Assembly (NCBI GenBank): GCA_041576165.1
Contig: JBFGLM010000007.1
Span: 1-64,000, forward strand
Direction: 5' to 3'
Origin: Acidimicrobiia bacterium
Lineage (GTDB): Bacteria > Actinomycetota > Acidimicrobiia > Spongiisociales > Spongiisociaceae
DNA length: 64,000 nucleotides
Numbering within the stretch: position 1 is the stretch's first letter; each line of letters begins with the position of its first letter. Below, in pieces: positions 37,287 through 49,693 of the stretch. The position numbers and the translations under genes are program-made. A model generated the notes under the pieces. It had not been told where the DNA came from. It made no database searches and worked only from the letters and a program-made list of their open reading frames with translations.

Positions 37287-38723
37287 ATGGCCGAAGCCGT
37301 CAAGCTCTACATCGCCGGTGAATGGACCGAAGGCACCGGCACCGAGGTGCATCAGTTGGTGTCCCCGGTCAACGGCGAGCACATCGCCGACATCCCGATC
37401 GCCAGCCGGGACGACGTGGACCGGGCGGTGGCGGCAGCCCGGGCGGCGCAAGACGAGTACCGGCATTGGTCGGCCATCGAACGGGCCGAGCTGAACCATC
37501 GGATCGCAGGTGCGATTGAGCCGCTGATCGAAGAGGTCGCTCGAGTCCAGACCCTTGAGCAGGGCAAGCCCTACCACGAGGAATCGCTGGCCGACGTCGA
37601 CGAGGCCAACAGCTATTTCTCGGAATCGGCGGAGGACGTCAAGAGGCTGGAGGGGGCGGTCATCCCCACCACCGACCGCAACGTGCGCATGTTTACGTTC
37701 CACCGCCCGGTGGGGGTGTGGGCCGCGATCACACCCTGGAACTTCCCGGTGACGATTCCTCTCGAATACGTCGGGCCCGGCCTCGCCACCGGCAACGCCG
37801 TCATTGTGAAGCCGCCGATTCATACCTCATGGGCCCTGCTCAAACTGGCCGAGGCGTTCGACGCCGCCGAGGTACCCAAGGGCCTCATCTCGATCATCCC
37901 CGGCGCGGCCGAGATCGGCGAGATGCTGGTTACCCACGACGGGATCGACGCCATCGGGTTCACCGGTTCGTCTCAGACAGGCAAACGAATCATCTCCCAG
38001 ATGGGGATCAAGCGCTCGATCATGGAGATGTCGGGCAACGGGCCCACCATCGTCACCGCCGACGCCAATGTCGCAGCGGCGGCCGAAGCAGCCGTGTATG
38101 GCACCTACTACAACGCCGGGCAGGTGTGCTGCGCCACCGAACGGGTGATCGTGGTCGAGTCGGTGCACGACGAGCTGGTGGAGCGATCACTCGAGGCGGC
38201 CAAGGTCGTGCACCTCGGCGACCCGTTCGATGAGAAGACCAACATGGGCCCCCTCAACAACGAACCCACCGCCACCAAGATGGACCGGCATATGGCCGAT
38301 GCCCGGGAGCGGGGGGCCGAGGTGCTGCTGGGCGGGGGGCGGGTGGCCGGGTTCCCCACTGACCTCTACTACGACTTCACGATCATTGATCAGGTCCCGG
38401 AGGATGCGGCCGTTGCTCGGGAGGAGTCGTTCGGCCCGGTGATGCCGATCCTGGTTGCGGCCGATGACGAGGAGGCGGTGGCGATTGCCAACCGGACCAA
38501 CCTGGGCCTGCAGGCCGCCGTGTTCACCCGCAGCCTCGACAAGGCGTTCTGGTACACCGACCGGATCCGGTCCGGCACCGTGATCGTCAACGACTCCACC
38601 GACTTCTGGGAGACGTTCCAACCGTTCGGGGGCGCAGCTGGCACCGATACCGGTTGGGGCCGCGGGAAGGTGCCGGAATTCACCGACCTCCAGACCATGG
38701 TGATCAATCTCAACAACGTCTGA
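37287..38723 (+). CDS. NAD(P)-dependent aldehyde dehydrogenase
   Basis: ITPWNFP, FTGSSQTG, EMSGN, NAGQVCC, EESFGP. Confidence 0.94.
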   Translation: MAEAVKLYIAGEWTEGTGTEVHQLVSPVNGEHIADIPIASRDDVDRAVAAARAAQDEYRHWSAIERAELNHRIAGAIEPLIEEVARVQTLEQGKPYHEESLADVDEANSYFSESAEDVKRLEGAVIPTTDRNVRMFTFHRPVGVWAAITPWNFPVTIPLEYVGPGLATGNAVIVKPPIHTSWALLKLAEAFDAAEVPKGLISIIPGAAEIGEMLVTHDGIDAIGFTGSSQTGKRIISQMGIKRSIMEMSGNGPTIVTADANVAAAAEAAVYGTYYNAGQVCCATERVIVVESVHDELVERSLEAAKVVHLGDPFDEKTNMGPLNNEPTATKMDRHMADARERGAEVLLGGGRVAGFPTDLYYDFTIIDQVPEDAAVAREESFGPVMPILVAADDEEAVAIANRTNLGLQAAVFTRSLDKAFWYTDRIRSGTVIVNDSTDFWETFQPFGGAAGTDTGWGRGKVPEFTDLQTMVINLNNV

Positions 38724-38749
38724 GCGAGCAGTTGGCCGGGCGGTGCTGG

Positions 38750-40318
38750 TCACGAGCCCGCGACCAGTTCCCCGTCGACGAACGTCGCGTCAACCGAGAT
38801 CGACCCGATGTCTTTCTCGACGAGAGGATCGGCCGTCGCCACCACCAAGTCGGCCACTTTGCCGGGAGTGATCGAGCCGCTGGTGTCATCGCGGTGGTTG
38901 ACGTAGGCGCTGCCCATAGTGAACCCGTACAGGACCTCCGCGGGCCCGAGCGCTTGATCTGGCAGGAAAGGCTCGTCCTCGGGCGCCTCCTGCCGGGTGA
39001 CCGCCACCGCCATTTGCTCGAACGGGTCGGCCGTGGACACCGGCCAGTCCGACCCGAAGGCCAGGCGGGCTGCGCCGGCGAGCAAATCCCGAAACCGGTA
39101 CTGCCACCCGGTGCGTTCAGGTCCGAGCCGGGGAGCGGTCAGCTGGAGCATGCACGCGTCGTTACACGCCCACAAAGCCTGGGCGTTGGCGACCACCCCC
39201 AACTCGGCAAAGCGGGGGACGTCGGCGTCGTTGATCACTTGAATGTGGGCGATCTGCGGACGTACCCGGGCGGCGTCGGCCGGGTCGCCGGCGGCGACCG
39301 CGTCCAAAGCATCCCTGATCGCCCGGTCGCCGATGGCGTGGAAGTGGGGCTGCACCCCGGCCGCCATGATGGCGGGCACCGCCTCGACCAGGACCTCGGG
39401 CGGGATGAAGGTGAGCCCGACATCGTCGACGGTGCCGGCATAGGGCGCCTGCAGGGCGGCGGTGCCGTTCTCACACACCCCATCAACCATGAGCTTGATG
39501 GCGGTCGGCTGGTAGCGAACAGTCGGCTCGACCGCGCGACGCAGGAGCTCCTCGAGCTGGTCGGTGCCGCGGTGACGATCCCACCACTGCGCCCCCACCA
39601 CCCGGGCGGTCAGGCCGCCATCGGCATCCAGGCGCCGGTACGCCTCGTGGGTGGGCTGCTCGACCCAGGCGTCCTGCCAGGCGGTGATGCCCAGACCCAG
39701 CAGCATTTCCTGCGCTCGCCGGATCCCCTCGACGTGATCGTCGACGGTGTCGCTGGGCGCGTGGCGGCCCACCAGCGCGACCGCCCCTTCCTGCAGGGTG
39801 CCGGACGGGTTTCCGTCCGCGTCGCGTTCGATCCGGCCGTCCGGCGGGTCGGGAGTGGCGGCGGTGACACCGGCCTGCGCCAACGCGCGGGTGTTGACCC
39901 AGGCGGCGTGGCCGTCCCGGCTGTGCAGGAACACCGGCCGGTCGGGAACGACGTGGTCGATCAGCTCGGTCCGGGCCACCCCACCGGGGAATGACTCCAT
40001 CGTCCAGCCGCCGCCCAGGATCCAAGTCTGGTCGGGATGGGTGGCGGCGTAGCGGGCGATGGCGTCGATGTATGCCGCCGGTTCCCCCACGTCGTGAAGG
40101 TCGCAGCGCAGCATGGCCAGCCCGCCGAGGGGCGGATGGATGTGGGCGTCCTGGAACCCGGGCAGGAGGGTACGGCCCGCCAGGTCGTACGGGGTGCCGG
40201 GTGGCGGCGGGCCCGTGCCGACGGCCTCGATCCGGCCTTGATCGACCATGACCCAGTCGGGATCGGAGTGATTCGGATCAAGGCTGTGGATGACCCCGTT
40301 GGTGAATACTGTCGGCAT
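38750..40318 (-). CDS. Amidohydrolase 3 family (YtcJ/NfdA-like)
   Basis: PGFQDAHIH, GHAAWVN, HAIGDRA, IAHIQ, GSDWPV, GKVADLV. Confidence 0.92.
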   Translation of the reverse strand: MPTVFTNGVIHSLDPNHSDPDWVMVDQGRIEAVGTGPPPPGTPYDLAGRTLLPGFQDAHIHPPLGGLAMLRCDLHDVGEPAAYIDAIARYAATHPDQTWILGGGWTMESFPGGVARTELIDHVVPDRPVFLHSRDGHAAWVNTRALAQAGVTAATPDPPDGRIERDADGNPSGTLQEGAVALVGRHAPSDTVDDHVEGIRRAQEMLLGLGITAWQDAWVEQPTHEAYRRLDADGGLTARVVGAQWWDRHRGTDQLEELLRRAVEPTVRYQPTAIKLMVDGVCENGTAALQAPYAGTVDDVGLTFIPPEVLVEAVPAIMAAGVQPHFHAIGDRAIRDALDAVAAGDPADAARVRPQIAHIQVINDADVPRFAELGVVANAQALWACNDACMLQLTAPRLGPERTGWQYRFRDLLAGAARLAFGSDWPVSTADPFEQMAVAVTRQEAPEDEPFLPDQALGPAEVLYGFTMGSAYVNHRDDTSGSITPGKVADLVVATADPLVEKDIGSISVDATFVDGELVAGS

Positions 40319-43393: not shown

Positions 43394-44566
43394 TCAGCCC
43401 TCGACGTGGGACTGGTTGAGGGGCATGAGGAAGAACCACAACGGCCGGGGGATGTCCTCGTCCTGGGCCATGGCTGCCTGGGCGGCGTGCACCACTTTGC
43501 CGGCTTCGGTGTGCTGGTAGATCCAGCTGTCCACCTGGCGGGCGCCCGGGACGTGATCAGCGAGCGACTGGGCCGCCTCTTCGTAATAGGAGCGGACGTC
43601 TAGCGCGGCCGCAAGCACGTCGCCCCCCGGCACCCCGGCCTCTTTGAAGTGGACACCCTCGCCGATGCGGACGAACGCCTCGAGAATCGCCGGAATGTCA
43701 TCGACCGTGCCGGCCCGCCCGACGCTGGTGATCCCGTTGCGTTCGAGCGTTCGGTTGTAGGCCGGCCGGATCCCGTTGGCTTCGTCGATCGCCGGATGCA
43801 GATCGGGATCGAACCTCGGCGGAATCTGGCAGACGAGCGCCTCGTCTGATTGATCTTCCAGAACCTCGGGAAACTCGACGAGCACCGGTCCGGATGGCTC
43901 CTTCAGCAGATCGAGGGCGGCCGTCATGACCCTCTTCTGGTAGTCGGGGTCGTTAGGTTTGCCCAGCGGGCGCCCCAGCGGAAACTCGACGTACAGCGCC
44001 CGGGGCGGGGCGGACCGTTCGATCTGGCCCCGGACCGACGCAATCACGACGGTGGAAAGCCCGGCGCCTTCGAGGATGTGGCCCAGCGTACCGACCGTAC
44101 GCGTGCACAGCGGTCAGACGGGAGTGAGCAACACCACCTCAACGCCGTCGTCCTGGAGGATTTGCGCAGCGGCCGGGCCGGTGTCGAGGCGCATGGTGGC
44201 GAGTGTGTGGTCTCCCTGCGCGCCCATGAACGAGATGTGTTGGTTTGCGACTGAGCCGATTGTGCCCGCGGCGGCCATTTCGTCGAGGCGGTCCATCGGG
44301 ATGACGACGTTGATGTCGCTGTTGAATCCAGACCTGTCAAAGTTCTGGCTGCGATGCGACAGCGTGAGGTGTTTCTCGCCGTGAGGAATCACCGTGAAGC
44401 CCTGGTCCTGGTTCGACCACATGATCACGCCGTCGGTGCGCAGACCCGCGGTCGTGACAATCGCCACCCGGGCGTCGGCCAGCGCCGGGGGCCTGGTGAA
44501 CGCGGTCTCCTCGAACTCGTATACGGGAATGTCGTTGTACGTTGCTCTGACTTTGGCGTCGCTCAT
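43394..44566 (-). CDS. PrdB/GrdB-like selenoprotein (390 aa, Sec151 in a UxxC motif) with C-terminal extension
   Basis: ARVAIVTTAG..DINVVIPMDRL..SFMG..DGVEVVLLTPV-TGA(44114-44116)-PLCTRTVG continues in frame into ORF 43394-44047 (PPRALYVEFPLGRPLG); SECIS-like hairpin follows. Confidence 0.88.
44086..44102 (-). promoter_or_regulatory. Bacterial SECIS-like hairpin
   Basis: GCGUAC-GGUCG-GUACGC starting after an 11-nt spacer 3' of the UGA; loop begins with G. Confidence 0.75.
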
Positions 44567-44620
44567 GGGAGGCGAGCGTAGCGGCTCACCGCTCACGGCC
44601 GCGCAAGATCGAGCAGCGTT

Positions 44621-44647
44621 TGTCACAACCAGGAAGGCTGTCTCGTC
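44621..44647 (+). promoter_or_regulatory. ECF41 target promoter
   Basis: Exact TGTCACA-N16-CGTC upstream of oxidoreductase-sigma operon. Confidence 0.88.
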
Positions 44648-44670
44648 AACTCTGCGTCGAAAGGAGTTGT

Positions 44671-45936
44671 ATGACGACCATCGTCATCGGCGGCGGCCTC
44701 TCAGGCCTGACCGCAGCCAACACCCTGGCGGATCGTGGCGAAACCGTCACCTTGCTCGAAGCACGCAATCGGCTCGGTGGCCGTGCCACCACCGACGAGC
44801 GGGACGGGCACCTGTTCAACCAGGGCCCCCACGCCCTCTATCTGGCCGGCAACGGCCTGCGAATCCTGCGCGAGCTTGGCATCGATCCGCCGGGCGGGGT
44901 ACCGCCCGTCGAGGGCGCGCTGGGCGTCTACGAAGGTCAAATCGTGCGATTGCCGTCCAGTCGCTGGTCCTTGCTGCGGACGCCGCTCCTCGCCGCGAGC
45001 GAGAAGATCGAGCTGGCGAAGATGCTCCTGGCCCTCACCCGGGTTGCGACCAGCCCCCTTGCCGCCATGTCGACACGTGAGTGGTTGGACGCAACCTTGA
45101 GCACGGAACGTCTCCGGCTGCTGGTTGGGGGCATGATCAGTGTTGCCACCTATGCGGCCGATCTCGACGTGCTCTCCGCCGATGTCGGTGTGTCTCAGCT
45201 GCAGCTGGCATTTCACAACGTTCGGTACGTCGATGGAGGATGGGAAACGATCGTGAATGCCCTGGCCGCCCGGGCCCGCACCGCCGGCGTGGACATCCGC
45301 ACCGGATCTGCTGCTTCCTCGGTCGAGCCGGCGCGCGGCGGCGGTTGGGCGGTGGACCTCTCCGATGGCAGATTGAGGGCGGATCAGGTCATCGTTGCGG
45401 CCGCCTCACCGGCCGCGGCGGCGCGCCTGACCGGTTCGGAGGCCCTGCTGGAATCGAGCGGGCGGGTGCAGCCGATTGCTGCCGCGTCTCTGGACGTTGG
45501 ACTACGGGCACTGCCAGTCCCTCGTCGTCGTTTCGCGTACGGTATCGACCGTCCACTGTATTTCTCGGTCCACAACCCGCCGGCCGGTCTCGGCCCGGGA
45601 ATCACGCTCCATGTGACGAAATACCTCAGCTGCGACGGTGAGTCACCAGCGGCTTCGGTGCGTTCCGAACTCGAGGACTTCCTCCAGTTGCTGCAGCCGG
45701 GTTGGCGGAACGTTCTCGACACGGCGCGGTTCCTCCGCCGGATGATGGTGTCCAACGCCATCCCGACCGCCCCCCATGGTGCCGGCGGCCGTCCCGACGT
45801 CGTCGTGCCCGACCGCGCCGGCATCTTCGTGGCAGGCGATTGGGTAGGCCCCGAGGGACATCTCGCCGACGCGGCCATAACATCAGGAAGGCGGGCCGCA
45901 GAGGCCGTGCTCGCCGCGAGACTGGTCCGAGCATGA
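44671..45936 (+). CDS. FAD-dependent oxidoreductase (flavin amine oxidase / phytoene desaturase-like)
   Basis: IGGGLSGLTAA, LGGRA, NQGPHALY, AGDWVGPEGHLADAA; SD AAGGAG. Confidence 0.9.
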   Translation: MTTIVIGGGLSGLTAANTLADRGETVTLLEARNRLGGRATTDERDGHLFNQGPHALYLAGNGLRILRELGIDPPGGVPPVEGALGVYEGQIVRLPSSRWSLLRTPLLAASEKIELAKMLLALTRVATSPLAAMSTREWLDATLSTERLRLLVGGMISVATYAADLDVLSADVGVSQLQLAFHNVRYVDGGWETIVNALAARARTAGVDIRTGSAASSVEPARGGGWAVDLSDGRLRADQVIVAAASPAAAARLTGSEALLESSGRVQPIAAASLDVGLRALPVPRRRFAYGIDRPLYFSVHNPPAGLGPGITLHVTKYLSCDGESPAASVRSELEDFLQLLQPGWRNVLDTARFLRRMMVSNAIPTAPHGAGGRPDVVVPDRAGIFVAGDWVGPEGHLADAAITSGRRAAEAVLAARLVRA

Positions 45937-46817
45937 GCGAGATCTTCGAGGCACACCGGCGCCGGCTGTTCGGTATCGCATACGCCATGCTGGGCCAAGT
46001 CATGGACGCCGAGGACGTTGTCCAGGACGCCTATTTGCGCTGGCAATCGGTGGAACAGACCCGGGTCGAGAACCCGGGCGGCTACCTCACAACCATCACC
46101 ACCCGAATCGCCATCGATCGCCTTCGTTCGGCCCAGAAACGGCGCGAAACATACATCGGGCCGTGGCTCCCGGAGCCAGTCGTGACGGACGCTGATCCCG
46201 CAGATGTCGTGGCCGAAGCCGAGCGGATCTCCTTTGCGTTCCTGACCGCTCTGGAGCGCCTCAACCCGGTGGAGCGGGCCGTGCTGGTGCTGCGGGATGT
46301 GTTCGATCTGGAGTACGCGGACATCGCCGACGTTGTCGACCGGACCCCAGCCAATTGTCGCCAGATTGCGGTCAGGGCGCGGGAGCACGTCGGCGACGCC
46401 GGCCGCTCGTACAAGCCGCCACCGGAACGCGAGCAGGAACTTGTCGCTGCCTTCGTCACCGCCCTGGCGGAGGGAGAGCTGGATCGGCTGATGGACGTGT
46501 TCGCCGCAGATGTGACCCTGTGGTCGGACGGCGGTGGGAAGGCTCGGGCCGCTCGTCACCCGATCTCCGGCGCGCTGAAGGTCGCCCGGTTTCTGCTCGG
46601 GATCCGGAGGAACGCCACGCCCGATGACACGTGGGGATACACCACCGCGAACGGAGACCCCGCCATTGTCGTGGCTCGTGACGGCAAACCCTTCTCGGTC
46701 ATGGTGCTCCAGATGTCCTATGGCGGGATCGTCGCGCTCCGCTCAGTGCTCAACCCGGACAAGCTCGAACATTGGTCCGACGTCGCAGCACCGAACCCCA
46801 TGACGTTCGTGACGTAG
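45933..46817 (+). CDS. sigJ: ECF41 (SigJ-type) sigma factor with SnoaL-like extension
   Basis: AEDVVQDAYLRW, GPWLPEP, SDGGGK, NPDKL. Confidence 0.93.
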   Translation: MSEIFEAHRRRLFGIAYAMLGQVMDAEDVVQDAYLRWQSVEQTRVENPGGYLTTITTRIAIDRLRSAQKRRETYIGPWLPEPVVTDADPADVVAEAERISFAFLTALERLNPVERAVLVLRDVFDLEYADIADVVDRTPANCRQIAVRAREHVGDAGRSYKPPPEREQELVAAFVTALAEGELDRLMDVFAADVTLWSDGGGKARAARHPISGALKVARFLLGIRRNATPDDTWGYTTANGDPAIVVARDGKPFSVMVLQMSYGGIVALRSVLNPDKLEHWSDVAAPNPMTFVT

Positions 46818-46866: not shown

Positions 46867-48393
46867 ATGCAGACGGGATCCAACGTCAGCACCGTGATCG
46901 AGGGCTGGATCGACCAGCGCGGCCCGGACGCAAGCGTGTTGATCACCGCCGCCGACGAGCACTGGTCGGGGGATCGGCTCCGCACCACCGTCAACCGGGT
47001 TGCCTCGCGGCTGCGCGAACTGGGAGTCCGGCGCGAAGAACGGATCCTCGTCGTGCTCGATGACACCCCGGCGTTTCCCGCCGCATTCCTGGGCTCGATG
47101 CGCATCGGCGCGGTACCGGTGCCGGTCAACTTCCTGGCCCGTCCGGAAGACTTCGGCTATTTCCTGGACGACGCCTACGCGGTGGCGGCCATTGTCGACG
47201 CGGCATTCCTACCGGTGGTTGAGCCCCAGGTCACGTCCCGGCCGAAGGTGCGGCTCATCGTCGCCAACGGAGAGCCGCCCGCCGGCGCTGACAACCTCGA
47301 CGATTTCATGACAGAAGGTAACGCCGATACCGCGCCGGTCGCCACCCACCCCGACGACATGGCCTTCTGGCTGTACTCCTCCGGTTCCACCGGGAAGCCG
47401 AAGGGTGTTGTGCACAGCCACGCCGACGTGGCCCCCACCTGTGAGCTCTACGCCGGACCCACTCTCGGGATCGGAACCAACGACACCGTGTTCTCCAGCA
47501 CGAAGATGTTCCACGCCTATGGACTGGGCAACAACCTGACGTTCCCGCTGTGGTGGGGGGCCACCTCGGTGTACCTGACCGGACGCCCAACCCCGGATGC
47601 GTTGCTAGAGCGGGTTGCCACCCACCGGCCCACTCTGTACTTCTCGGTACCGGCCCTCTACAACGCGATCCTGGCCCACCCCGATTTCGACGCCGCGGAT
47701 TGGTCATCGGTCCGGCTGGGCGTTTCGGCGGCCGAGCCGCTTCCACCCGAGATCTGGCGGCGTTTCCATGACCGGACAGGAATCGAGATCCTCGACGGCG
47801 TCGGCTCCACCGAGATGCTCCACATCTATGCCTCCAACCAAGCCGGCTCGGTGAGGCCGGGCACGTCGGGCATGTCGGTCGCTGGGTACGACCTCGAGAT
47901 TCGCAACCCAGAGGGCGAACTGTGCGCCCCCGGTGAGGCGGGGGAGATGTGGGTACGCGGCCCCAGCGCGCTCAGCTCGTACTGGCATCAGCACGAACGG
48001 ACCCGGGAGAAGCTCCGCGGCGGCTGGTTTCTGACCGGTGACCGGTACCGCCGGGATGGCGACGGGTACTACACGTACGAGGGCCGGGTCGACGACATGA
48101 TGAAGGTGGGCGGCTTGTGGGTGAGCCCGATTGAGATCGAGAACCGGCTCATGGAACACGCCGCAGTTCGCGAAGCGGCCGTCGTCGCGGCTCAGATCGA
48201 AGGCACCTCGCGGATCAAAGCCTTTGTGATCCTCGCTGAAGTCGCAGCCAGGACCGACGCGTTGGTCGGCGAGCTGCAGGAATGGTGCAAGTCGGCGCTC
48301 CTTCGGTACCAGTACCCGCACCAGGTCGAATTTGTCGACGACTTTCCGCGTACGGCTACCGGCAAGATTCAGCGCTTCAAACTGCGCGACTGA
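46867..48393 (+). CDS. Benzoate-CoA ligase family aryl-CoA ligase
   Basis: WLYSSGSTGKPKG, FHAYGLGN, SAAEPLP, DGVGSTEMLH, TATGKIQRFKLR. Confidence 0.9.
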   Translation: MQTGSNVSTVIEGWIDQRGPDASVLITAADEHWSGDRLRTTVNRVASRLRELGVRREERILVVLDDTPAFPAAFLGSMRIGAVPVPVNFLARPEDFGYFLDDAYAVAAIVDAAFLPVVEPQVTSRPKVRLIVANGEPPAGADNLDDFMTEGNADTAPVATHPDDMAFWLYSSGSTGKPKGVVHSHADVAPTCELYAGPTLGIGTNDTVFSSTKMFHAYGLGNNLTFPLWWGATSVYLTGRPTPDALLERVATHRPTLYFSVPALYNAILAHPDFDAADWSSVRLGVSAAEPLPPEIWRRFHDRTGIEILDGVGSTEMLHIYASNQAGSVRPGTSGMSVAGYDLEIRNPEGELCAPGEAGEMWVRGPSALSSYWHQHERTREKLRGGWFLTGDRYRRDGDGYYTYEGRVDDMMKVGGLWVSPIEIENRLMEHAAVREAAVVAAQIEGTSRIKAFVILAEVAARTDALVGELQEWCKSALLRYQYPHQVEFVDDFPRTATGKIQRFKLRD

Positions 48394-48441
48394 CCGTGGG
48401 AGGCGGCGGCAAGGTGCCCGACGCAGAGGGGTGGCAACCGG

Positions 48442-48474
48442 CGAGCGGGGGACCCCGGTCGGGTCCCCCGCTCG
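48442..48474. terminator. 14-bp hairpin between convergent genes
   Basis: CGAGCGGGGGACCC-CGGTC-GGGTCCCCCGCTCG. Confidence 0.7.
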
Positions 48475-48487
48475 AATTCACCGCCAT

Positions 48488-48832
48488 CTAGAGGTACGCG
48501 AGCTCCTGTCCCGCCTGCCCGTACAGGCCGAGCCGACGATCCAATTCTTCGCCGGTGAAGTACATGTGGAAAGCGAAGCCCTCACACACGAACATGGCCT
48601 TGTTCAGCAACACGATGAAGTCATCGCGGCCGGTGATGTCGAACATCACTTCCATATCGCCACGGACAAGGAACATGCCGTCGTTGACCTGCATCAGCAC
48701 CAGGGGCTCAGATACCTTGCCCTCAGCGGCCAGCTTGCCGAAATACGTGCGGAAATCGGCCAGCACCGCCAGCGCCTTTGCCTCGCGGCCGGGATACGGC
48801 TTGAGCCACTTGAAGACCAGCGCGTAGTCCAT
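48488..48832 (-). CDS. Hypothetical protein (114 aa)
   Basis: SD GGGAGGT before ATG 48832; MDYALVFKWLKPYPGREAKAL; coding-like composition. Confidence 0.75.
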   Translation of the reverse strand: MDYALVFKWLKPYPGREAKALAVLADFRTYFGKLAAEGKVSEPLVLMQVNDGMFLVRGDMEVMFDITGRDDFIVLLNKAMFVCEGFAFHMYFTGEELDRRLGLYGQAGQELAYL

Positions 48833-49006
48833 CCGGACCTCCCTTGCGCGGTCGGACCCTCCCGGCATCCTTGTGCGGGTCGACCGCCTTCGGCTAGGGC
48901 CGAAGGGCTCAGCACCGGCCTTTTGAGCCGGTCGGATCATGGAGCGAAGGCGGCAGGTGGGAAAGGACCCGGGAGTAGCGCAACTGGGGCCGTAGCGTGA
49001 TTGGGC

Positions 49007-49693
49007 ATGTTGCGCAGACGACGCCCGGCCGATCCAAACGAGGTCGGGCCGGCACAGACGGTGGGCGACGCCTCGCCTTCTGATGAACTGGTGTCGTTGT
49101 TGGTAGCCAGTGCCGAACCCGTCCTGGACGCGCCGGAGGGGCATCGACGATCGTCGCCGGCCGGGGGTCGTTGCCTCTATGGAGCGGCTGGGAGTCGACG
49201 TCGGCGAATTCCTCGCCGAATACGACCTTGGGCGCGATTACCAGTGGACCATCCGCTGAGCCGGGTAGATCGCACACTCGATGCGGCGTTCGTCCCGCCG
49301 GGCTTGGCCCGGGCGACTGCCGAGATGCTGGGAGCGCTAGCCGACCCGCTCACCGTGCGGCGCCTGGCCCGCTATGCCACCAGGGCGGCTGCCCGGGCGC
49401 GCATGGCGTCCGATGCGCGTCTCGCAAACGCCGCGATGCGTGCCCATGCTGTCCTCATCCACTCACGAGCGCCGGCCGATCGACGCGACGACATGGTGAG
49501 CCTGGTGCCAATTGACGTCGCGGCGCGCGAACACATCGGGGACCGCCACCTGCAAACGCTCACCGATCTGGTACCGGATTCCGACGTCGAGTTCGTACAG
49601 AGCTTCTCCGCTCGCACCGACGTGACACCGGCAGCATTCGGTTGGATCGAGTTGGATGCGCCGCATGGAGTTTGGATAGTCCCAGACCGCTGA
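49007..49693 (+). CDS. Hypothetical protein, possibly with two compensating frameshifts
   Basis: Protein-like N and C termini; middle (about 49140-49256) reads better in the +1 frame. Confidence 0.5.
   Translation: MLRRRRPADPNEVGPAQTVGDASPSDELVSLLVASAEPVLDAPEGHRRSSPAGGRCLYGAAGSRRRRIPRRIRPWARLPVDHPLSRVDRTLDAAFVPPGLARATAEMLGALADPLTVRRLARYATRAAARARMASDARLANAAMRAHAVLIHSRAPADRRDDMVSLVPIDVAAREHIGDRHLQTLTDLVPDSDVEFVQSFSARTDVTPAAFGWIELDAPHGVWIVPDR

Follow-up and report, generated by a model that had tools for sequence, protein, structure and literature searches.

The gene described here lies on the minus strand of a 64,000-nucleotide stretch of Acidimicrobiia DNA (hereafter the window; positions 1 to 64,000, forward strand, of contig JBFGLM010000007.1, assembly GCA_041576165.1), between a convergent FG-GAP-repeat gene and a divergent gene for an amine-oxidase-family flavoprotein. 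In the open reading frame (ORF) listing, a minus-strand ORF at 44626..44114 closes in ...VVLLTPV-TGA and a second ORF of 217 residues lies downstream of this TGA. Translation that starts with ATG 44566 and takes TGA as selenocysteine (Sec, U) gives an unbroken frame up to the stop at 43396-43394, with a product of 390 residues and the motif U151-P-L-C154; this start agrees with the N-termini of full-length homologs (alignment A1, see below). An earlier note, made from the DNA letters, had proposed just such a 390-residue read-through frame with a UxxC motif and had read it as a selenoprotein of the PrdB/GrdB family, recoded at a UGA that is followed by a hairpin, and split in two by annotation pipelines. 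We reproduced the frame, and the position of the TGA, the 11-nt spacer, and the hairpin GCGTAC-GGTCG-GTACGC all match the DNA (Table 1). As set out below, 44566-43397 (-) is very probably a single monocistronic selenoprotein gene that represents a stand-alone, PrdB-like branch of the glycine/proline-reductase protein-B family.

To follow the UGA codon among genomic relatives, we used one genome per species (GTDB r232), which gave 599 pattern matches and 590 confirmed relatives, the best 80 of which were kept. Most of these 80 loci belong to metagenome-assembled genomes of Acidimicrobiia, and the others are labeled Deltaproteobacteria, Binatia, Acidobacteriota, Myxococcota, and Eremiobacterota. 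The U column is TGA in all 80 of these best loci, and Cys154 is conserved in 81/81 read-through proteins (the window plus the 80 loci). Mean identity to the window protein is 59% upstream of the UGA and 51% downstream, and the two halves are therefore both constrained. As the terminator of the gene, 46 of the 80 relatives use TGA, 23 use TAG, and 11 use TAA; TGA is thus an ordinary stop codon in these organisms as well. In a sample of 301 genomes from the class of the window, 40 genomes harbor a match at E ≤ 1e-40 and 40 of the 43 matches hold an internal TGA (without the unpublished genome G212, 39 of 300 and 38 of 41, respectively).

A word-indexed search of 5.8 billion proteins returned 388 matches. 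Among the 120 listed, 43 are full length (358-441 residues) and 77 are C-terminal halves of 214-235 residues; one of the latter (P0003) is the window's own 217-residue C-terminal half, which stands in the database as a separate protein with 100% identity, and the 76 further halves are mostly unnamed or "hypothetical," as expected from the proposed splitting by pipelines. In alignment A1, built from 20 of the 43 full-length homologs, the U column is occupied by Cys in 19 and by Ser in one, and Cys154 and Cys246 are invariant. The column thus holds UGA (80/80) or Cys (19/20), as the earlier note had anticipated, and neither TAA nor TAG was ever found there. Two further genomic loci (L104 and L108) carry TGC in place of TGA. 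A third (L109, G192:C76:4997-6751) carries Gly (GGG, codon 748-750) at the catalytic column within VLTPL-G-PMCTRTV; its genome carries a Sec form as well, and the Gly-bearing protein may lack catalytic activity or work in a different way.

The minimal selenocysteine insertion sequence (SECIS) of Escherichia coli fdhF is a stem-loop within the coding sequence shortly past the UGA, with an 11-nt spacing and a GGUC-type loop, features that the window element shares. In a gap-free alignment of the 60-nt UGA regions of the window and the 80 loci, with the TGA in columns 10-12, the RNAalifold consensus of the 81 sequences is exactly the 6-bp stem, columns 24-29 with 35-40. This stem is paired in 98.3% of 480 cells versus 92.7% in shuffles, and in three of its six pairs both bases have changed: CG (39 sequences) alternates with UA (37) at pair 27/37, GC (73) with UA (three) at pair 24/40, and AU (76) with GC (two) at pair 28/36. 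The observed pairing, number of compensatory pairs, and covariation score were reached by 0/500 shuffles, and slid registers were all far worse. One side of pair 27/37 is the synonymous third base of an Arg codon (CGY) and the other is the first base of a Thr/Ala/Val codon, a coupling that is not predicted by protein constraint alone. It is therefore the relatives that lift the hairpin above chance, through the TGA in 80/80, the RNAalifold stem, and pair counts that beat 500 shuffles. The helix chosen by minimum free energy (MFE) folding of the window sequence alone (columns 12-21 with 26-36) was rejected, as it is paired in 74.8% of cells across the relatives, the level of the shuffles, and a 3-bp lower stem (columns 19-21 with 43-45) is not claimed, pair 19/45 being unpaired in 43/80. 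The apical loop begins 17 nt past the UGA, inside the range of 16-37 nt given for bacterial SECIS elements in the available part of the source (PMC10778597), and the hairpin is a predicted SelB-binding site. In the three non-Sec forms retrieved (two TGC, one GGG), only two, four, and three of the six hairpin positions can pair, so that degradation of the element appears to go in the expected direction.

The source genome (G000) is a bin of 161 contigs and 5.1 Mb, 96.5% complete and 7.5% contaminated, and encodes the machinery for Sec insertion in full: selA and selB twice each (on two contigs each), selD with one in-frame TGA, and two copies of tRNA-Sec(UCA). By its in-frame TGA, selD (L011, G000:C1:169885-173817) is itself a selenoprotein form. 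The selA-selB copies lie on C24 (L001/L004) and C100 (L002/L003) and the tRNA-Sec genes at C1:33378-33466 and C145:1292-1384; this doubling reflects either genuine gene duplication or the presence of two organisms in the bin. Sequence accuracy at the critical codon was assessed from contigs of runs X4, X5, and X6, which stem from three studies (the source study may be among them; run X8, with short pieces of 90-95% likeness, was excluded). These contigs cover 44114-44116 without difference, reading TGA and neither TGC nor TGT, and the sole listed difference is at 44201. The presence of selA, selB, selD, and tRNA-Sec, the TGA agreed on by three runs, and the absence of TAA and TAG from the U column of the homologs are the outcomes on which the earlier note had staked its core reading, and that reading is supported. 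Its remark that Sec is uncommon in Actinobacteria fails for the class concerned, where selA was detected in 204 of the 301 sampled genomes (with the unpublished G212, G275, and G254 counted); the Sec trait is likewise reported for Actinomarina in the available part of a 2026 preprint.

We next place the protein among known families. Pfam PF07355 (GRDB) matches residues 29-148 with 28.5 bits against a gathering cut-off of 22, on model positions 223-345 of 347, and the best curated match is NCBIfam TIGR04483 (PrdB equivalog), which aligns residues 28-223 with positions 26-220 of 238 at 118.3 bits against a cut-off of 300. TIGR01918 (selenoprotein B subfamily) scores 36.5 bits, under its curated cut-off of 65.45, and the GrdF, GrdH, and GrdB models (TIGR01917/01918, NF040794/5) as a group score 30-49 bits, all far under their cut-offs; no separate Pfam family matches the 217-residue ORF downstream of the TGA. 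The protein is therefore best described as a PrdB-sized core with ~155 extra residues and as the equivalog of no characterized reductase subunit. Like the 26-kDa clostridial PrdB, it aligns over the whole core, has the equivalent Sec in UxxC, and has a hairpin past the UGA; it differs from clostridial PrdB in that its gene is monocistronic, no PrdA was found, a helical domain of 155 residues containing an invariant Cys is added, and its carriers are mostly Acidimicrobiia of marine, soil, and sediment metagenomes. What it has in common with GrdB, GrdF, and GrdH is the last third of the Pfam GRDB model, a model whose end coincides with the Sec; the first ~220 model positions are missing, and no GrdA or GrdE was found.

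The AlphaFold2 model derived from A1 is of high confidence (pLDDT, predicted local distance difference test, 92.3; pTM, predicted template modeling score, 0.91) and places U151 between strand 144-148 and helix 152-167, the usual site of a redox center of the CxxC type. Compared with solved chains (VIA), the core returns only generic Rossmann- or periplasmic-binding-protein-like matches, with Z up to 8.3 on residues 27-237, a common level; Foldseek with the whole model found nothing in the PDB at E ≤ 0.001, and a PDB sequence search with profile A1 gave nothing below E 0.78. The C-terminal 155 residues, modeled alone from 34 sequences, form seven helices (pLDDT 94.3, pTM 0.89). No solved relative of this domain was found (VIA best Z 4.0, with 0/48161 chains at Z ≥ 5; Foldseek best E 0.66), an absence of match that does not show a new fold. 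In a HMMER search of 1.84 billion cluster representatives, the domain occurs in 193 proteins at E ≤ 0.001 (104 at 1e-10 and 11 at 1e-30), always at the C-terminus of proteins of ~380-420 residues or of fragments, and was found only in this family. Two apparent fusions of the domain were discarded: P0123 is an artefact, its 1624 residues consisting of 29 identical repeats of ~55 residues whose summed weak matches made the top score, and P0150 is a spurious long frame. In the linker ahead of the helices, Cys246 is kept in 81/81 read-through proteins and is invariant in alignments A1 and A3; the extra C-terminal part with a Cys of its own (ALVCQIP) that the earlier note had pointed out is present.

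Table 1 Features of the selenoprotein gene and its flanking region, in window coordinates
Feature	Position	Strand	Basis or remark
Coding sequence of the 390-residue read-through protein	43397..44566	-	ATG 44566-44564; Sec is codon 151
True stop codon TGA	43394..43396	-	Sequence and translation
In-frame UGA (U151)	44114..44116	-	TGA in 80/80 relatives, Cys in 19/20 full-length homologs, contigs of three runs
11-nt spacer CCGCTGTGCAC, UGA to hairpin	44103..44113	-	Includes the Cys154 codon, 44107-44105
SECIS-like hairpin	44086..44102	-	Arms 44102-44097 and 44091-44086; loop GGUCG 44096-44092
PrdB-like alpha/beta core, ~residues 28-235	43862..44485	-	TIGR04483 on residues 28-223, PF07355 on residues 29-148, model
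All-helical, family-specific C-terminal domain, residues 236-390	43397..43861	-	No Pfam family; model with seven helices
Invariant Cys246 codon (third conserved chalcogen residue)	43829..43831	-	Cys in 81/81 read-through proteins
Intergenic region between this gene and the divergent flavoprotein gene (probable ATG 44671)	44567..44670	.	ORF layout; promoter presumed

Proteins of this general kind have been listed in environmental surveys for some time, and the novelty that the earlier note implied was overstated. In the available parts of these sources, "proline reductase PrdB" with a UxxC motif was already the third most abundant selenoprotein family of the Sargasso Sea in 2005, with 42 genes (PMC1088965); the Global Ocean Sampling survey of 2008 assigned the PrdB family to pfam07355 and counted 235 Sec and 110 Cys forms (PMC2398784); and the same label was given in genomes such as Anaeromyxobacter and Geobacter (PMC1794560). 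The window protein has both features that define the survey family, as U151-P-L-C154 and the PF07355 match, and resembles it further in the pairing of Sec with Cys forms; as described in these partial texts, the family is abundant outside clostridia. The available parts of the two ocean surveys give counts and nothing on architecture or partners (PMC1088965, PMC2398784), and the main text of deep-Sep mentions neither PrdB nor GrdB (PMC12013277). We found no description of the long-form architecture in the literature, a search whose scope was the articles themselves and not supplements that might list such sequences. The gene is thus a genuine, mis-split selenoprotein gene of a known, biochemically uncharacterized kind, to which the long form adds a useful refinement.

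Partner subunits were sought at three levels. No PrdA/GrdA-type gene was found among the 10 window ORFs scanned, in keeping with the earlier note, and no PrdA, GrdE, or GrdA was found among representatives of the recurrent neighbor clusters of the 81 loci. In genome G000, PF09338 (PrdA/GrdE) and PF04723 (GrdA) gave no match; the built-in control genomes gave none either, and partner subunits are for this reason counted as "not found" rather than "absent." The commonest neighbors across the 81 loci are short-chain dehydrogenase/reductase (16 loci), acyl-CoA dehydrogenase (15), luciferase-like monooxygenase (11), and AMP-ligase (9, including the window). These recurrent neighbors were rejected as candidate partners: they belong to common families, occur in at most 16/81 loci, and are too variably placed.

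Several observations weigh against the interpretation of the locus as a stand-alone selenoprotein gene. The hairpin of the window itself is thermodynamically unremarkable, with 129 of 200 dinucleotide shuffles as stable over 76 nt (z 0.37) and 109 of 200 over 45 nt (z 0.27), and single-sequence MFE folding chooses another helix. Compared with the fdhF SECIS, support in the window is limited to the 6-bp stem, the bulged U is not among the supported features, and an Rfam scan of 43900-44300 at E ≤ 10 gave no match. Because the hairpin lies inside the coding sequence, its conservation (e.g., loop G31-U32, in a Val codon) may be partly protein-driven; kinship of sequences alone can beat shuffles without any structure, and the comparison with non-Sec forms is a control of n=3. 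None of the runs listed for this stretch is an RNA run. The missing partners rest on a bin that is incomplete and contaminated to the extent given above and on searches of unproven sensitivity, and the catalytic roles that follow for Sec151, Cys154, and Cys246 are assigned by analogy only.

In the mechanism that we propose for this stand-alone selenoprotein, SelB with Sec-tRNA(Sec) would bind the hairpin and insert Sec151 into a PrdB-sized alpha/beta core, where U151-P-L-C154 would sit at the N-terminal end of a helix, and the fused helical domain would contribute Cys246 as a third invariant thiol. In analogy to PrdB, as described in the available part of the source (PMC13188914), the selenolate would act as the nucleophile on the substrate and Cys154 would resolve the adduct to a selenenylsulfide, which could be re-reduced by a dithiol donor such as thioredoxin, possibly via Cys246. 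Cys246 may serve as a third redox thiol or contribute to a substrate site in cis, and the protein would operate without a PrdA/GrdE pyruvoyl subunit or GrdA. A more specific proposal, which we regard as rather unlikely, is that the long form is a self-sufficient selenoenzyme in which the Cys246-bearing C-terminal domain replaces PrdA/GrdE or GrdA, binding the substrate or acting as the third redox thiol in the reductive cleavage of a C-N, C-S, or C-O bond; the metabolite cleaved would resemble an amino acid or derive from an aromatic acid, and the carriers would be aerobic Acidimicrobiia and members of other soil and marine phyla. A racemase and major facilitator superfamily (MFS) transporters in three close relatives, together with a recurring benzoate-CoA-ligase-family gene, are weak hints of an amino-acid-like or aromatic-acid substrate. 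If true, the proposal of a self-sufficient enzyme would assign a biochemical function to a selenoprotein family that ranks among the most abundant in the environment.

The protein might alternatively dispense with the classical subunits and still not be self-contained, in that it would need an unlinked and unrecognized partner, either a carbonyl/pyruvoyl carrier or a dedicated reductase. The chemistry of PrdB calls for a substrate-activating carbonyl, according to the available part of the source (PMC13188914), and the variable neighborhoods speak for such a partner insofar as linkage would not be required; no candidate has emerged, however, and the invariant Cys246 domain is fused to the core in every long-form member, which suggests that the added function is provided in cis, so that we consider an unlinked partner quite unlikely. 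It is distinctly improbable that the protein belongs, as one subunit, to a canonical D-proline, glycine, sarcosine, or betaine reductase whose partner subunits (PrdA/GrdE, GrdA, GrdC/D) are encoded elsewhere. PrdB, GrdF, GrdH, and GrdB are indeed its best curated matches, and Cys forms are labeled "D-proline reductase (dithiol) PrdB" by the Joint Genome Institute; prd operons include a racemase, and an Asp/Glu-type racemase lies two genes off in three close relatives (L015, L017, and L018). Yet the curated scores fall far short (118 versus 300 and 36.5 versus 65.45), PF09338 and PF04723 were not found in a 96.5%-complete genome by a search of unproven sensitivity, no partner gene appeared among the window ORFs scanned or the recurrent neighbor clusters of the 81 loci, and PrdB lacks the extra C-terminal domain.

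Readings in which the UGA is not Sec fare worse. That it is a plain stop, whether between two separate genes, in a nonsense-mutated pseudogene, or through an assembly error, would fit the separate listing of the halves by gene callers and a window hairpin no more stable than its shuffles, but it is highly improbable given the TGA in 80/80 relatives with a conserved downstream frame, the Cys in homologs, the covarying hairpin, and the agreement of three runs on the TGA; moreover, the downstream "gene" has no start shared with homologs, its listed GTG being codon 175 of the full protein. A changed genetic code, with UGA read as another amino acid such as Trp or Gly, is barely credible, since the one Gly (GGG) in L109 stands against TGA as the terminator of the window gene and of 46/80 relatives' genes, a full Sec machinery with tRNA-Sec(UCA), and Cys as the replacement residue in homologs.

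In practical terms, the locus as a mis-split gene of a long-form, PrdB-like selenoprotein bears on annotation. The gene is routinely cut in two, and no curated NCBIfam model reaches its cut-off; with at least 590 places encoding relatives in species-representative genomes, hundreds of genomes therefore carry the same split error. PrdB-like proteins are among the most abundant selenoproteins of ocean metagenomes, as counted in the available parts of the surveys (PMC1088965, PMC2398784). The long-form subfamily is defined here by Sec151/Cys154/Cys246, a confidently modeled helical domain, and a covarying SECIS hairpin, three features that offer handles for expression and assay; knowledge in principle is unchanged, and the result will not surprise a specialist.

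Upstream of the selenoprotein gene, the divergent flavoprotein gene (44671-45936, +) belongs to the amine-oxidase/phytoene-desaturase family, with FAD/NAD-binding families matching from residue 2-4. Beyond it lie a gene for an extracytoplasmic function (ECF)-type sigma factor (45702-46817, +), with regions 2 and 4 and a long C-terminal extension that has no assignment, and then the benzoate-CoA-ligase-family gene (46867-48393, +; TIGR02262, 556.6 bits against a cut-off of 375.25). A gene of the latter family lies within ~2.3 kb of the PrdB-like gene in nine of the 81 loci, namely, the window, L064, L075, L089, L015, L017, L018, L047, and L068, and is directly divergent in L064, L075, and L089; L015, L017, and L018 additionally have genes for an Asp/Glu-family racemase and two MFS transporters, placed between the two genes or next to them. 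Three further ORFs, at 48332-49000 (+), 49001-49693 (+), and 38654-39994 (+), have no Pfam match at E ≤ 1e-5 and the first two no NCBIfam match either; in DNA of 65% GC, these may not all be real genes.

The same genome harbors three more PrdB-like genes (L094, G000:C15:12597-16001; L097, G000:C78:2548-5919; and L096, G000:C3:35878-39153), each with TGA at the Sec column in a G-U-P-M-C-H-R or V-U-P-V-C-H-Q context. Their frame lengths suggest products of ~250-300 residues, and the copies on C15 and C78 resemble two variants of a single gene, which may come from two strains within the bin. These short-form paralogs share U-P-x-C and an FPLG-x-P-x-G-x-P motif with the window protein at 30-35% identity, but they lack the helical C-terminal domain and Cys246. 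Each also has a hairpin with a stem of 7-8 bp and a 5-nt loop, at an offset equal to that in the window.

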